Numbered from the stretch's first letter, positions 13,928 through 19,688 are shown. The stretch: DNA of 45,223 nt from Candidatus Woesearchaeota archaeon CG1_02_57_44 (GCA_001871415.1 MNWW01000042.1:1-45223), one strand, 5' to 3'. The notes: a model not told the origin generated them from the letters alone. Made by a program: numbers and translations.

Positions 13928-15052
13928 ATGGCATTCACGGTCACGCCATGGGAGGTCTCTGGCGCCATCGACTATGACAAGCTCGTGGAGCAGTTCGGCG
14001 TCTCCCGGATAGGTCCTGGCCTGCTCAAGCGCATAGAGGCGCATGCAGCGAAAAAAGGCCTTCCTCTGCATCACATGCTGCGACGCAACATCTTCTTCGC
14101 GCACCGCGACCTGAAGTGGATACTGGACGAATACGAGAAAGGAAACAGATTCTTCCTCTACACTGGCCGAGGGCCTTCAGGTAGCACGCACATAGGGCAC
14201 CTCATCCCCTGGCTGTTCACCAAATGGCTGCAGGATGTCTTTGACGTCGAGCTGTATTTTCAATTGACCGACGACGAGAAGTTCCTGTTCAACCCGAAGC
14301 TTGAGCTTGAGGACACGCAACGCCTCGCCATGGAGAATGCGCTGGACGTCATCGCTGTCGGCTTCAAGCAGGGCAAGACGCATATCTTCTCCAATACGGG
14401 TTATGCCAAGACGCTGTATCCGCAGGCCTGCCGCGTGGCAAAGAAATTGACCTTCTCAACAGCGAAAGCTGTGTTCGGCTTTGGCAATGACAGCAATGTC
14501 GGCCAGATCTTCTTCACCAGCATGCAGGCCGTGCCCGCGTTCCTGCCGTCCGTGCAGGCAGGCAGGAACATCCCCTGCCTGATCCCCCACGCCATCGACC
14601 AGGACCCGCACTTTCGGGTCACGCGTGACATCATGCCGCGCATGGGATACTACAAGCCCGCGTCCGTGCAGTGCCGCTTTTTGCCGGGCCTGACTGAAGA
14701 TGGCAAGATGTCTGCCAGCAAGGCAGATACCGCTATCTACACGACAGATGACGCGAGGACCGTCAGGAAGAAAGTGCTCAAGCACGCGTTCTCGGGCGGG
14801 CAGCCCACGGTGGAGGAGCATCGCGCCAAGGGCGGCGATCCGGATATCGATGTCAGCTACCAGTGGCTCACGTTCCTTGAGGAGAATGACGCGAAGCTCA
14901 CACAGGTGTATCATGATTACAAGTCAGGGAGACTGCTCTCGGGTGAGCTCAAGCTCATGCTCGTCGAGAAGCTGAATGGTCTGCTCACAGGGCATCAGAA
15001 ACGGCGCGAGCAGGCGAGAAAGCGGCTGGATGATTTCTGGGTGAAGGACTGA
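13928..15052 (+). CDS. trpS: Tryptophanyl-tRNA synthetase (archaeal/eukaryotic type)
   Basis: VTPWEV, LYTGRGPS..HIGH, TDDEKF, DQDPHFR, KMSAS. Confidence 0.97.
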   Translation: MAFTVTPWEVSGAIDYDKLVEQFGVSRIGPGLLKRIEAHAAKKGLPLHHMLRRNIFFAHRDLKWILDEYEKGNRFFLYTGRGPSGSTHIGHLIPWLFTKWLQDVFDVELYFQLTDDEKFLFNPKLELEDTQRLAMENALDVIAVGFKQGKTHIFSNTGYAKTLYPQACRVAKKLTFSTAKAVFGFGNDSNVGQIFFTSMQAVPAFLPSVQAGRNIPCLIPHAIDQDPHFRVTRDIMPRMGYYKPASVQCRFLPGLTEDGKMSASKADTAIYTTDDARTVRKKVLKHAFSGGQPTVEEHRAKGGDPDIDVSYQWLTFLEENDAKLTQVYHDYKSGRLLSGELKLMLVEKLNGLLTGHQKRREQARKRLDDFWVKD

Positions 15053-15063
15053 TATGAAAAGTC

Positions 15064-15364
15064 GAGCCCCCCGGTAAGCCGCCTTCTGTTCTCCCCGCCA
15101 TGGGCGTCGGGACATCCTGGCATTCAACTGAGCGGCGCGAAGGCCTTGCACAGGGCCGGCGGCATGGCCGTTTCATCGCTCCCTTTGGAACGTCAGCGGG
15201 TTAGCTTGCAGACGTCGCCGAATGCGTCGCGCGCATCATCCTGCCCAAAGGACGTGTCGTTTCTTCTGCCTGCCGCACACCGTTGCCGATACCCGCTTGC
15301 GCGGGCGGCCGTTGTCTGTGGGCGGACTTTCCCCCGAGTGAACGGTCGCCAGGTCGGGGGGCTC
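15064..15364 (-). ncRNA. rnpB: RNase P RNA
   Basis: Terminal P1 GAGCCCCCCG/CGGGGGGCTC; CR-I GGGGAAAGTCCGCC; AGAAGAAAC and GATGAAACGG internal conserved regions; TGTGCAAGG; CR-V AACAGAAGGCGGCTTA; TTAAATA box about 25 nt upstream. Confidence 0.93.
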
Positions 15365-15727
15365 AAGGCGAAGAATTACTGCAGGGTATTTAAGGGTTGG
15401 GACGGAAACGAATCAGTCTTGCATGTATTGGTCGACAGAGGTTACGGTATGGAGCTTCTGTGCATGAGCATGTTCCTGCTCTACGAGGTGAGGGGTCTGC
15501 CGCCGGATTCTCCGCTGCATTTGGTCGAGCACCTCACGATGCTGCTCATCACATAAGCAGCAGGAAAGACAACGCATTATCGGCAAGAGCGCCTCGCGAT
15601 AAGGGGCGTGTTCAGCAGCTTCCTGGATTGACCTTGCCGCGCGCAAGGCAAACAGGTACAGTGGAATATCCTACTGGTCGCATTCGGGATGTTGCTACAT
15701 CATATCCTACAGAACACGCATCACCTT

Positions 15728-15755
15728 AAAAAAGAAAAAAGGCCGGAAAACCGGC
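15728..15755 (-). terminator. Hairpin plus oligo-T terminator of the two-peptide operon
   Basis: GCCGG-TTTT-CCGGC followed by CTTTTTTCTTTTTT, starting 2 nt after the stop codon at 15758. Confidence 0.8.
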
Positions 15756-15757
15756 AC

Positions 15758-15820
15758 TCAATCATCGTCTCCGTCTGAATCCGAATCGTTGTCGTCGGAA
15801 TCCCAGTCGTCGTCACTCAT
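15758..15820 (-). CDS. 20-aa Asp-rich acidic micropeptide MSDDDWDSDDNDSDSDGDDD
   Basis: ATG 15820, TGA 15758. AGGTG SD 7 nt upstream overlaps the TAG of the preceding peptide gene. Asp codons are mixed GAC/GAT. Confidence 0.72.
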   Translation of the reverse strand: MSDDDWDSDDNDSDSDGDDD

Positions 15821-15830
15821 AGCTGTACAC

Positions 15831-15905
15831 CTACTTCTTCTTAGCTGCCTTCTTGACGGTCTTCTTTGGGGCTGCTTTCTTGACTGCTTTCTTCTTTGCT
15901 GCCAT
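15831..15905 (-). CDS. 24-aa Lys/Ala-rich histone H1-tail-like micropeptide MAAKKKAVKKAAPKKTVKKAAKKK
   Basis: ATG 15905 with a perfect GAGGTGA SD 5 nt upstream; TAG 15831. Synonymous codon variation (AAG/AAA, GCA/GCC/GCT) indicates repetition at the protein level. Confidence 0.82.
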   Translation of the reverse strand: MAAKKKAVKKAAPKKTVKKAAKKK

Positions 15906-15915
15906 AGTTTTCACC

Positions 15916-15937
15916 TCACTGATATTTGATTCAGTGA
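15916..15937. promoter_or_regulatory. Inverted repeat TCACTGA-N8-TCAGTGA overlapping the SD of the basic peptide gene
   Basis: Perfect 7-bp arms read directly; overlaps the first 2 nt of GAGGTGA on the minus strand. Confidence 0.45.
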
Positions 15938-16024
15938 ATAGAACTCATTACCTTGCGGATGGTTGTTTGTCGCCTCCAACAGGGCTTATTCTGCTGTTGT
16001 GGCGAATGGGGTATTTATTTGTTT

Positions 16025-17080
16025 CTATTTGCTGATTTTTTTCAGCACAGAAAGCATGATGGGCCGGCCGCCTTGTTGGATGTGCGTCGCTCTCTGGACA
16101 GAGAAATGGTACTGCCCCAACAGCGCAGGAGGGATGGGCGACTCATGCAGCAACGCCAGCGTCCCTGTCTTGGCTAGGATGTAGTCTGCCTGATAGAGCA
16201 GCTCCTGCTGACGCTTTGCCAGCGCGTCCTTGTCGCGTTCATTAGGCATCCACGTCGCTATGCAGTCCACCTCATGCTCGGTGAACTTGGTGTCCAGCCA
16301 ATCAGGTGATATCCTCGAGAAATTCAGGATGCGCTCGACTCCTGCCAGTTTCGCGTTCTTTCCTGCCGCGACGACGTTTGGCATCACGCCGTCGAGCGCG
16401 TTGATGATGCCCTTGATCTTCTCCTTGCCCTTGCGGTCTATGGCATCCAGGTCAATGGGCCAGGAAGGCAGATCTTTCTTGCGGAAGCGGTTGTGGCTGA
16501 GGCATGCGGCGAACATTGCGGCCTCGATGGGTATGACCCCATCGCCACACATGGGGTCGAGCAGGTTCTGCTTGCCGGTGAATCCTGAGGCGAGCACCGC
16601 ACAGAATCCGAGGGTCGCGCGCAGCGACGAGCGCGAGGCGAAGACCTTGTAGTCGCGCTTGCCGATGTCGCCTGACAGGTCGATGCCCAGGACTTCCCCG
16701 GACGTATCATCTCCTTGCGGCACGATAGTCGCGCGCACCATTGCCTTTGGTGATGAGAGATCGACCTTGGTCTCAACGCCTGCGCTCCTGCACTCCTCGA
16801 GCAGGCGCGCGCCGATGGTCGCTTCTGCCGCGGGCGTAGCAACGTCGTCGCTGAGCACCCGCGCCCTGACGCAGAAGGATCCTTCAAGGTCCTGCAGGTC
16901 AAGGGCCTTGCAGATACGCTCAGACGACTGGGAACGATAGCATGCCCTATAGGTCGTGGCATCATCAGCATCGAAGAACACCAGGCCGTCCTGCTGCCCT
17001 GTCACCGTGCATCCCAGCAGCGTAAGCTCCTGCGCGGCATAGGCCTGCGCGCCTACCAGGACTTCAGCTATCGCCTTCAT
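16025..17080 (-). CDS. THUMP-domain SAM-dependent RNA methyltransferase (Trm14/RlmL-like)
   Basis: KVDLSSP (THUMP end), [27 protein letters not shown]. Confidence 0.85.
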
Positions 17081-19688
17081 GAATCTTCTCCGCGGCGACG
17101 ACCTTGTCGCCTGACTCGAGGCGCATGATGCGCACCCCCTGTGTAGCCCTGCCCAGCACCGGGATGCTGCTCATGGGGACCCTGATGAGAATGCCCTTCT
17201 GGCTGATGACCATCAGCTCATCCGTGTCATCGACGGTCTTGACCGCCGCGACGCGCTCGCTGCGGATATTGATGACCCCTTTGCCCCCGCGCGCGGTCAG
17301 ACGATAGTCCTCGATGCGCGAGCGCTTGCCTGTTCCTGTCTCGGTGACGGACAGTATGGTCTGGCCTGTCTGTGGGATTGCCAGGCCAATGACATGGGAG
17401 TCCTTATCGACCTTGATGCCCTTGACACCGCGGGCGCCGCGTCCCATGGACCGCACATCCTGCTCATTGAAGCGCACGGCCATGCCGTCAGCGCTCGCCA
17501 GCAGCACTTCGTCCTTACCAGAGGTGATGCGAACGTCCACGAGCTCATCGTCGTCATCCAGTCCCAGGGCGATGATTCCTCCCTTGCGGGGCCTGCTGAA
17601 CTCATCCAGTGGTGTTTTTTTCACGATGCCATTTTTTGTGGCGAAAAAGAGGAATCCTGAAAAGTCGCTCGTGGCTATCATGGCTCTGACGCTGCGCGAG
17701 GAATCCAGGGACTCCACGATGTTCACGACAGGCTTTCCTTTCGCGTAGCGACCAAGCACAGGCAGGTCATAGACCTTGACCCAGTGGACTTTTCCTTTAT
17801 TGGTGAACATGAGCAGGTAGCTGTGCGTGTTCGCGATGAAGAGGTGATCGACAAAGTCCTCGTCCTTCATGTCTGTCGCGGTCACGCCCTTGCCGCCGCG
17901 TTGCTGCTGGCGATAGGCGTCCATGGGCATGCGCTTGATGTAGCCCTCATGCGTGCAGGTGACGATGACGTCTTCTTCGTCAATGATGTCCTCGATGTTG
18001 ATGTCCGCAGCAGGGCCCATTATCTTCGTGCGGCGCGGATCGCCGTACTGGTCTGCCAGGGCGACGGTCTCATTGCGTATGATGGTCATGACTTTCGCTT
18101 CTGAGGCCAGGATGGAGCGGTATTCATTGGCCTTGGCCAGCAACTCTGATTGCTCGTCGCGGACCTTTTTCTGCTCGAGCGCCGCCAAGCGCTGCAGGCG
18201 CATGTCCAATATCGCCTTGGCCTGCAGCTCTGACATGGCGAATCGCGTCATGAGGCCTTCCTTGGCATCAGCTCCGTCCTTGCTCTTGCGAATCAGGCTG
18301 ACTATGGCGTCTATCGCGTCCAGCGCCCGGATGAGCCCTTCGAGGATATGTAATCGCTCCTCTGCCTTGCGCAGGTCGTATTGCGTGCGCCTCACCACGA
18401 CCACACGGCGGTGCTCCACGAAATGGTGCAGCATGTCCTTGAGGGGCAGCATCCTGGGCTTGTGATCGACCAGCGCGAGGTTGATGACCCCAAAAGTCGT
18501 CTGCAGCTTGGTCATCTTGAACAGGCGGTTGAGCACCACGTCGCTGTTCGCGTCGCCTTTGAGTTCGATGACAACGCGCATACCTTCCCTGTCAGACTCA
18601 TCACGGATATCGCTGATGCCTGGCAGGCGCTTCTCCTTGACCAGGAATGCCATCTGCTCGAGCAGCAGGGACTTGTTGACCTGATAGGGTATCTCTGCGA
18701 CAATGATTCTCTGGCGGCCCTTGTGCTCTTCGATATGGGTCTTCGCCCTGACGGTCAGATGGCCTCTTCCTCGACGGTAGGCCTGCTTGATGCCGTCGGT
18801 TCCCATGATGATGCCGCCTGTCGGAAAATCAGGGCCAGGGACTATGGCATTGAGCTGTTCCACGGTTATATCAGGATTGTCGATAAGCGCGCCCACGGCC
18901 TTGCATACTTCGGCCATGTTGTGCGGCGGGATGTTGGTGGCCATGCCGACGGCGATGCCGCTTGAGCCATTGACCAGAAGATTAGGTATCGCTGATGGCA
19001 GGACCGTCGGCTCCTTGAGCGTGTTGTCAAAGTTCTCCTGGAAATCGACAGTCTCTTTCTCCAGATCCTTGAGCATCTCTTCTGCTATCCTGGTCATGCG
19101 CGCTTCAGTATAGCGCATCGCCGCGGGATTGTCGCCATCAATGCTGCCGAAGTTTCCCTGGCCATTGACCAGCAGATAACGCAGCGAGAAGTCCTGGGCC
19201 ATGCGCACCAAGGTATCATAGACCGCCATATCACCGTGCGGATGATACTTACCGAGAACCTCGCCTACTATCCTCGCTGATTTCTTGTAGGGCTTGTCGT
19301 GCGTGAGGCTCAGGTCCTGCATGCCGAAGAGCACACGACGGTGCACGGGCTTAAGCCCATCGCGCACATCCGGCAAGGCTCTTCCGACGATGACGGACAT
19401 GGCGTACTCCAGGTATGACTGGCGCATCTCATCCTCGATGACACGAGGTATTATCCTGCCCGCGTCAGGATTATCTGACTGATAGGGCTGTTTTGGTTCT
19501 GGATCGTTATTGGCTGGATCCTCTGATTGTTGGTCTTCCTGCTCTTGGGTCAGGTCAGATGTCTGTTCTGTCGGGGTCTCTTCTGAGCTCTCTTCTCCTT
19601 CTTCTGGCTGGTTTTCGGACTGCTTGTTGGCAGGCGCGTCCTGCTTGTTCCCATCCTCATTTGTCGACGGAGAAATATCATCATCCAT
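17064..19688 (-). CDS. gyrA: DNA gyrase subunit A
   Basis: [37 protein letters not shown] (catalytic Tyr), GyrA-box QQRGGKG, beta-pinwheel repeats. Confidence 0.97.

Follow-up and report, generated by a model that had tools for sequence, protein, structure and literature searches.

Two neighbouring micro-genes on the minus strand of a 45,223-nucleotide (nt) stretch of Candidatus Woesearchaeota archaeon CG1_02_57_44 (GCA_001871415.1 MNWW01000042.1:1-45223; hereafter the window) are real and recur in related archaea. The first encodes a Lys/Ala-rich peptide of 24 residues and the second an Asp-rich peptide of 20 residues. Their recurrence points to an undescribed two-peptide module, the function of which we could only infer. 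The finding is carried by the two open reading frames (ORFs) and the signals around them, by the recurrence of these ORFs as a pair and by purifying selection on an acidic micro-ORF. Throughout, G labels designate genomes (G000 for the window genome, the others for relatives) and L labels designate loci.

The Lys/Ala-rich micro-gene (15905-15831, 24 codons and a stop) encodes a peptide with 12 Lys, 8 Ala, 1 Pro and no acidic residue, giving a net charge of +12. The Asp-rich micro-gene (15820-15758, 20 codons and a stop) follows after 10 nt in a different frame and encodes a peptide with 12 Asp, 1 Trp and no basic residue, giving a net charge of -12. Each ORF is preceded by a Shine-Dalgarno site: a seven-base match at 15917-15911, located 5 nt before the first ATG, and a five-base match at 15832-15828, which shares bases with the first ORF's stop codon and is separated from the second ATG by 7 nt. 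The ORF lister began the Lys-rich ORF at an upstream GTG (15914, 27 amino acids (aa)). Judging from the sequence, the ATG at 15905 is the better start, because a Shine-Dalgarno site lies 5 nt upstream and the first residues are common to relatives. An A/T-rich, TATA-like promoter box (16020-16011) was identified directly 3' of the stop codon of the preceding methyltransferase gene (16027-16025), and a leader of about 90 nt separates it from the first Shine-Dalgarno site. By eye, this box closely resembles the A/T-rich boxes found 5' of homologous micro-genes in relatives, as well as the box preceding a second acidic micro-ORF of the same genome. Directly after the acidic ORF, a 5-base-pair (bp) G+C hairpin (15755-15742) and a 13-nt T-run (15740-15728) form a terminator; the terminator scan by itself was not above shuffles (2 found versus 1.6 expected). 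In both ORFs, Lys and Asp codons alternate among synonyms. The first-pass annotation of this DNA had described the two micro-ORFs with these compositions, a Shine-Dalgarno site for each with the second built into the first stop codon, the upstream promoter-like element, the hairpin/oligo-T terminator and the synonymous codon variation, and all were borne out.

The centroid structure of the leader contained a putative 8-bp hairpin (15938-15915), the 3' arm of which extends into the start of the Shine-Dalgarno site preceding the Lys-rich ORF. The structure of the 5' leader overall was not significant (z -1.2), so that this hairpin is a possible feature only, and the transcript of the whole pair was no more structured than shuffles (z -0.14). 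A short inverted repeat is found directly before the Shine-Dalgarno site of the Lys gene in the congeners G279 and G319 (L060/L061); it is conserved between them and resembles the possible hairpin of the window.

A genome-wide listing of every ORF of at least 15 codons showed how unusual both frames are in their own genome. The acidic ORF was the only one among 18,484 ORFs of 15-60 aa with at least 50% Asp/Glu and no Lys or Arg. Only two ORFs of up to 130 aa with at least 35% Lys were found, the window ORF and a 75-aa ORF on contig C22. Because the rare acidic ORF sits 10 nt downstream of one of the two rare Lys-rich ORFs, a chance association was excluded.

The pair, made of a Lys-rich and an acidic micro-ORF, was found in 10 genomes belonging to 9 families and 2 orders of the class. 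A DNA search of 40 relatives, one per family of the same order, matched the Lys-coding part in 12; almost all of these matches fell in small Lys-rich ORFs that begin with the same residues, follow a strong Shine-Dalgarno site and are trailed by a T-run. A start pattern consisting of the Shine-Dalgarno core, a spacer of 5-14 nt and the first five codons occurred 62 times in 54 of 401 genomes of the order, and the reversed control pattern did not occur (0). In a phylum-wide draw, which overlaps the first, the same pattern was present in 39 of 301 genomes, including 9 of 84 from other orders of the class. The loci examined comprised all start-pattern hits minus those of two genomes. Of the 77 distinct hits, 54 were ORFs between 8 and 114 aa long in which Lys/Arg made up at least 35%; the remaining 23 were mostly ordinary proteins sharing the first residues, with a few Lys-rich ORFs that were partly masked or fell just below the threshold. 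We defined a micro-gene class by a Shine-Dalgarno site, a spacer of 5-14 nt, the shared first five residues, a length of up to 125 aa, at least 35% Lys/Arg and a T-run. The window ORF, which is one of the 54, has all of these features, and some Lys-rich ORFs of relatives have only 11-13 codons. Together these tiny Lys-rich genes make up a broad and loose set in this DPANN class.

An acidic partner, defined as an ORF of 15-54 aa with at least 45% Asp/Glu beside a Lys-rich gene, adjoins 9 of the 54 small Lys-rich ORFs that the start pattern had recovered. The acidic ORF lies downstream in eight genomes (G000, G005, G016, G105, G176, G279, G319 and G455). In G460 the order is reversed, the acidic ORF being upstream, with the same promoter box and terminator kept. 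A junction pattern spanning both ORFs added G253, in which the Lys-rich ORF starts differently; this pattern matched 42 times and its reversed control 9 times, the matches being mostly noise. The congeners G279 and G319 were counted as one, and the relatives are not independent of each other. The window pair conforms to the others: two adjacent micro-ORFs on the same strand, one Lys-rich, the other with at least 45% Asp/Glu and an aromatic residue, each with a Shine-Dalgarno site. The first-pass annotation had proposed a search for tandem small ORFs with conserved order and charge balance across relatives; the pairing was recovered in 10 genomes and 9 families, the order was reversed in one and charge balance was not general.

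The organisation of the pairs followed that of the window. The gap between the ORFs was 10-13 nt in 6 of the 10 pairs, 26 nt in 2, and 83 and 94 nt in the last 2, where it contains a T-run. In the six pairs with a 10-13-nt gap the second Shine-Dalgarno site lies at the first stop codon, as expected for coupled translation, and by eye a Shine-Dalgarno-type site was present 5-9 nt before the acidic ATG in 10/10 pairs. T-runs follow the pair in all relatives. Six pairs were checked for their reading frames, and the offsets between the ORFs were 1, 2, 1, 1, 1 and 2. Since the frames differ, the cassette corresponds to two cistrons and not to one broken gene, and a single gene split by a stop codon or expressed by read-through was ruled out. 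An alignment of six acidic peptides showed little in common except an aromatic residue followed by an Asp run. All ten acidic peptides contain 1-3 Trp, Tyr or Phe residues, and seven contain Trp.

Control counts were obtained from 249 kilobases of relatives' loci. None of 436 ORFs of at least 80 aa had an acidic micro-ORF starting within 150 nt downstream, and only 7 of 3,559 ORFs of 12-40 aa contained at least 50% Asp/Glu, 6 of the 7 being the partners themselves. The congeners G139 and G269 contain an acidic micro-ORF that stands alone, preceded by a promoter box and a Shine-Dalgarno site of its own. Between these two genomes the acidic micro-ORF is identical at 57/60 positions and the neighbouring protein gene at 197/205, compared with 76/97 for the intergenic DNA before the acidic ORF and 137/229 for the DNA after it. 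By this comparison of identities, a stand-alone acidic micro-ORF is under purifying selection. The Lys ORFs of G279 and G319 share about 86% identity and the acidic ORFs 60-74%, the latter differing by substitutions and indels; despite the indels, the acidic ORF stays open, acidic and nearly constant in length.

The surroundings of the pair were not conserved. The 24 flanking proteins at the pair loci of nine relatives belong to unrelated families, with no recurrent or very basic neighbour; the genes next to the pair vary by genome and include those for a phosphatase, thymidylate synthase, an M17 peptidase, methionyl-tRNA synthetase, a DEAD-box helicase and others. The neighbours of the G016 pair differ from those of the window. 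The only synteny shared with a relative was found in G037 (L007), where an 18-aa Lys-rich micro-gene lies directly downstream of gyrA; the window pair likewise follows gyrA, separated from it by a methyltransferase gene.

Homology searches assigned neither peptide to a known family. Pfam (E up to 1) gave no match to the 24-residue Lys peptide, neither Pfam nor NCBIfam gave a family for the 20-aa and 33-aa acidic peptides, and Pfam gave none for a 54-aa acidic one. PADLOC and PHROGs returned 0 families for six peptides, namely the window pair, the G016 pair and the acidic ORFs of G460 and contig C7. With the 20-aa acidic peptide as query, no candidates were obtained in 300 genomes, and an Atlas search with the acidic peptide returned nothing usable. 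The 75-aa Lys-rich paralogue had no protein match at E 0.001 and the 54-aa acidic relative none at E 1, in searches whose composition filters probably suppress such sequences. As a DNA query against 301 genomes, the acidic ORF of G016 gave only low-complexity matches, and the loci retrieved in this way from 29 other genomes contained no acidic micro-ORF. No operon of oppositely charged micropeptides, in archaea or elsewhere, was found in the portions of the literature available. In agreement with the first-pass annotation, which knew of no such pair in archaea, Pfam, NCBIfam, PADLOC, PHROGs and the literature accessible in part yielded no counterpart.

Several other loci of the window genome and its relatives resemble one or the other micro-gene. 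The 75-aa ORF of G000 (contig C22:13816-14043, minus; L014) encodes an internally repetitive protein rich in Lys, Ala and Val, and no acidic ORF adjoins it. The other acidic micro-ORF of the genome (contig C7:1345-1479, minus; L164) stands alone and encodes 44 aa with a Trp near the start, a Glu run and then Asp/Phe; its promoter box is of the same type, its Shine-Dalgarno site is strong and a metallophosphoesterase-like gene immediately precedes it. A protein of 105-144 aa, encoded on contig C6 of G000 (L019:1261-1605) and at L004 and L006, consists of a unit of about 35 residues in two copies and a Lys-rich tail that resembles the micro-peptide. Neither Pfam nor NCBIfam gave it a significant match, and it could be a DNA-binding protein specific to the lineage. 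A subset of the Lys-rich peptides ends in a cysteine motif (L063 of G282, L085 of G300, L154 of G434, L071, L088, L094 and L081); a Cys-x-x-Cys ending is common to three genomes, and the others carry runs of 4-5 Cys or a His/Cys cluster. These endings could serve to bind metal, to form dimers bridged by metal or as sites of lipidation. Ordinary proteins also open with the same Lys-rich residues (L105, L066-L068, L100 and others), among them translation GTPase-like, 465-aa aminopeptidase-like and glycosyltransferase-like proteins, and such a start may be a favoured initiation context in the class.

We tentatively favour, at a little less than even confidence, the hypothesis that the Lys peptide is a nucleic-acid-binding polycation and that a disordered acidic partner, translated along with it, acts as its buffer. 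The cassette is a self-contained unit of two cistrons, with one promoter box, two Shine-Dalgarno sites and one terminator, from which a 24-residue polycation and a 20-residue, Trp-bearing polyanion would be translated side by side in similar amounts. A Lys/Ala/Pro composition characterises the tails of linker histones and the H1-like proteins of bacteria, whose charge lets them bind nucleic acid, and the Lys peptide most likely binds DNA or RNA in the same way, like a linker-histone tail. The acidic peptide is most likely disordered and would use its charge to bind the Lys peptide or a basic surface of that kind, its aromatic residue adding contacts. In the cell it would buffer or chaperone the polycation, or compete it off nucleic acid. 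As a rule, products translated in a coupled manner from a single short transcript, and whose genes remain neighbours even after swapping order, act jointly. The reading as a polycation with a polyanionic buffer or chaperone is suggested by the H1-tail-like composition and by the precedents of H1/prothymosin-alpha and of HU mimics. Net charges lie within 4 units of each other in 7 of the 10 pairs, which also counts in its favour.

A number of observations weigh against a general partnership of this kind. No acidic neighbour was found within 200-250 nt on either side of 45 of the 54 small Lys-rich genes, which argues that the polycation does not generally need a partner. The first-pass annotation had listed relatives keeping only one ORF as a sign against its proposal, and this is what most Lys-rich genes show; yet 10 pairs are retained. 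Acidic micro-ORFs also occur alone, in G139, G269 and on contig C7 of the window genome. The ten net-charge sums were 0, +35, +4, +4, -3, -1, 0, -11, -21 and -2: charges cancel exactly in only 2 of the 10 pairs (G000, +12/-12; G105, +13/-13), three pairs are unbalanced by 11, 21 and 35 units, and the charge sizes of the two peptides are uncorrelated (Spearman 0.30, p 0.41, n=10). Equal and opposite charge, as the first-pass annotation had described it for the window pair, is not general by these counts, and strict charge matching was rejected. At the site of the G105 cassette, the flanks are 22 nt apart in the congener G191 and other DNA is present in G252; congeners of G253 also lack the cassette at its syntenic site. 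For two of the genomes with a pair, congeners thus have no cassette at the corresponding position, so the module is accessory, with frequent gain or loss. With twelve charges on each side, polyelectrolytes are expected to bind each other only weakly at physiological salt concentrations, and the acidic peptide would lose the competition to nucleic acid. Two further results weigh on neither side: complex prediction for the G016 pair (76 aa and 33 aa), run without controls, scored 0.00 where the mark was 0.34, and none of the RNA contigs, which are not reads, extended over the pair.

The main rival explanation, which we consider rather unlikely, is that the peptides act separately, the acidic-aromatic peptide being a free linear motif that docks on a folded protein possessing a basic surface and a hydrophobic pocket, the Lys peptide binding nucleic acid alone, and their adjacency reflecting shared regulation only. 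Such a motif would fit the 1-3 Trp, Tyr or Phe residues placed among the acidic residues of each peptide, and the Trp-centred acidic motif of eIF3j, bound in a Lys-flanked pocket, provides a model in the available sections of PMC2824034. The existence of acidic micro-ORFs without a Lys gene, and of a majority of Lys genes without an acidic one, is also as expected if each peptide works by itself. However, no recurrent or very basic protein that could be docked on was encoded beside the pairs, and mere co-regulation would need neither the coupling seen in 6 of 10 pairs nor adjacency maintained after inversion. Distinctly less probable is an addiction-like or antagonistic cassette, with a polycation harmful to the cell, a host or a competitor and a polyanion made along with it as antidote. 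Charge-neutralised precursors of cationic peptides are known, and the patchy distribution (10 pair-bearing genomes in draws of 401 and 301), the absence of the cassette from syntenic sites in congeners and its self-contained build, with its own promoter and terminator among unrelated neighbours in every genome, are all in line with this idea. It is difficult to reconcile with the many Lys-rich genes (45/54) that have no antidote-like neighbour, with the lack of any PADLOC or PHROGs match and with the absence of mobile-element genes nearby, the window cassette lying among housekeeping genes; as read from its sequence, the Lys peptide also has no hydrophobic face or export signal. A known toxin-antitoxin or defence protein was rejected, as no PADLOC model matched.

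Two further explanations deny the peptides a role. It is highly improbable that the ORFs act as translated regulatory elements or as an RNA, which might, for instance, sense how much Lys- or Asp-tRNA is available or how heavily ribosomes are loaded. The shortness of the ORFs (down to 11-13 Lys-rich codons in relatives), the long leaders, the possible hairpin touching a Shine-Dalgarno site and the extreme bias in codon content would suit a sensor. Against it, the terminator directly follows the pair here and in relatives, and no gene is constant downstream; the transcript is no more structured than shuffles and Rfam found nothing except RNase P RNA; and, as the DNA diverges, the frame stays open and the peptides keep their composition. 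That the acidic ORF is a chance or newborn low-complexity frame devoid of function is hardly credible: its shortness, its low complexity and its absence from most relatives and from congeners would fit, but it recurs in 9 families with a Shine-Dalgarno site in 10/10 cases, has a control rate of 0/436 and a rarity of 1 in 18,484 in its own genome, and a related acidic ORF is conserved at 57/60 positions compared with 76/97 in flanking DNA. Of these explanations, the buffered polycation remains the one we prefer.

The window corresponds to contig C35 of an archaeal genome of 1.53 megabases, 82% complete, with about 58% G+C, which also encodes a histone and Alba. The cassette is surrounded by housekeeping genes. 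Upstream on the same strand are gyrA (19688-17064, minus) and a gene for a THUMP/Trm14-like methyltransferase (17080-16025, minus; Pfam UPF0020, 5e-18; NCBIfam Trm14, 84 bits, far under the equivalog cut-off of 280 bits). In public contig scans the closest relatives of this tRNA methyltransferase-like protein (16025-17080, minus) were bacterial, with 23-40% identity. The archaeal RNase P RNA (15364-15064; Rfam RF00373, 103.6 bits) lies on the minus strand, that of the micro-gene pair, and was the sole Rfam match in the window; no Rfam match was found in the loci of six relatives. A gene for tryptophanyl-tRNA synthetase, identified with Pfam, is on the opposite strand. The approximately 360 nt between the terminator of the pair and the RNase P RNA (15365-15727) are without a convincing gene; a 77-aa frame (minus, TTG start) and a 110-aa frame (plus) in this interval had no Pfam family, and the RNase P promoter must lie within it.

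The DNA of the window is present in groundwater and aquifer metagenomes. An independent metagenome contig of 1,783 nt, which may derive from the same population as the window genome, carries an identical cassette stretch, which excludes a local assembly error. A search for relatives with the neighbouring methyltransferase as query returned just this identical contig and distant bacterial genes. Six metatranscriptome runs contain 7-12% of the sequence words of 15000-17100. In four metatranscriptomes one RNA contig each was found, covering only the RNase P RNA (15063-15355) without differences. Because these RNA contigs match the RNase P RNA exactly, the organism was active in those samples.

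Genes of 20-24 codons fall under the size cut-off of gene callers, so that a module made of such genes is invisible in current annotation. If the peptides bind each other, they would form the smallest natural polycation/polyanion pair encoded as an operon, and the first reported for archaea. The proposed interaction, if true, bears on how DPANN cells with small genomes manage nucleic-acid charge, chromatin or ribosomes, and on whether disordered, charge-driven complexes of the H1/prothymosin type predate eukaryotes. Both peptides are accessible by chemical synthesis, which makes the central claim directly testable at the bench.

Known systems match the module in part. The LysW/ArgW carriers are marked by the cysteines of a zinc ribbon and by a conserved Glu at the C-terminus to which the substrate is attached; a carrier of this type was ruled out, as the acidic peptides have no Cys and their last residues vary (Asp, Ile, Glu, Trp, Tyr) over the 10 pairs. 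Membership in the prothymosin-alpha, DSS1 (Sem1) or eIF3j families was rejected as well, given the absence of Pfam matches for the acidic peptides. The winged-helix globular domain of linker histones H1/H5 (PF00538) has no counterpart in the 24-residue peptide, which had no Pfam match; the Lys/Ala/Pro-rich unstructured tail does, as a likeness of composition only. Chlamydial Hc2/HctB (PF07382) and similar bacterial Lys-rich proteins share the Lys/Ala-rich repetitive composition. The window Lys peptide did not match PF07382, and the 75-aa paralogue reached 13.4 bits (E 0.086), far below the 40-bit cut-off; the nearest Atlas clusters of this paralogue were bacterial Lys-rich hypothetical proteins, one with PF07382 on 21% of its members. 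We know of no acidic partner gene for Hc2.

The acidic DNA mimics DMP12, DMP19 and phage Gp46 bind the nucleoid protein HU, according to the parts available of PMC3643605, PMC5722371 and PMC8892312. As proposed for the module, an acidic protein here occupies the DNA-binding surface of an abundant basic DNA-binding protein. Unlike the window acidic peptide, which has 20 residues and is presumably disordered, these mimics are folded proteins of about 100 residues with a DNA-like charge pattern, and their genes are not coupled to that of their target. The acidic motif of eIF3j surrounds a conserved Trp, which inserts into a hydrophobic pocket of an RNA-recognition motif (RRM); Lys residues of the RRM flank this pocket and contact the acidic residues, and binding is lost on mutating the Trp or the acidic residues (available sections of PMC2824034). 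The micro-peptides resemble this N-terminal motif of eIF3j/Hcr1 in having a short acidic stretch around a Trp (Trp in 7/10, an aromatic residue in 10/10), whereas the motif is part of a 30-kDa eukaryotic factor. To our knowledge, its partner domain, the eIF3b RRM, does not occur in archaea. Small acidic cofactors of the DSS1/Sem1 type offer a similar comparison.

A further parallel is that of H1 with prothymosin-alpha. In the accessible portions of PMC7661507, PMC10576128 and bioRxiv 10.1101/2020.04.17.046243, oppositely charged disordered proteins are described as forming tight complexes that compete with nucleic acid, the acidic partner prothymosin-alpha chaperoning the polycation H1 and competing it off nucleic acid. 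The window encodes a comparable combination of a Lys/Ala/Pro-rich polycation without fixed structure and an Asp/Glu-rich polyanion. Its peptides differ in being 5-10 times smaller, with 12 charges a side, and in being encoded by separate micro-genes of one operon, their binding being putative. H1 and prothymosin-alpha bring more than 40 charges a side. A more far-reaching reading is possible, if doubtful: the cassette would be the DPANN branch of an ancient, undescribed archaeal two-micropeptide module, a minimal polyelectrolyte pair formed by a free acidic peptide with Trp or another aromatic residue and a free Lys-rich peptide, acting on chromatin or the ribosome and a prokaryotic counterpart of the eukaryotic H1/prothymosin-alpha interaction or of eIF3j-type interactions between acidic-Trp and Lys-rich partners.

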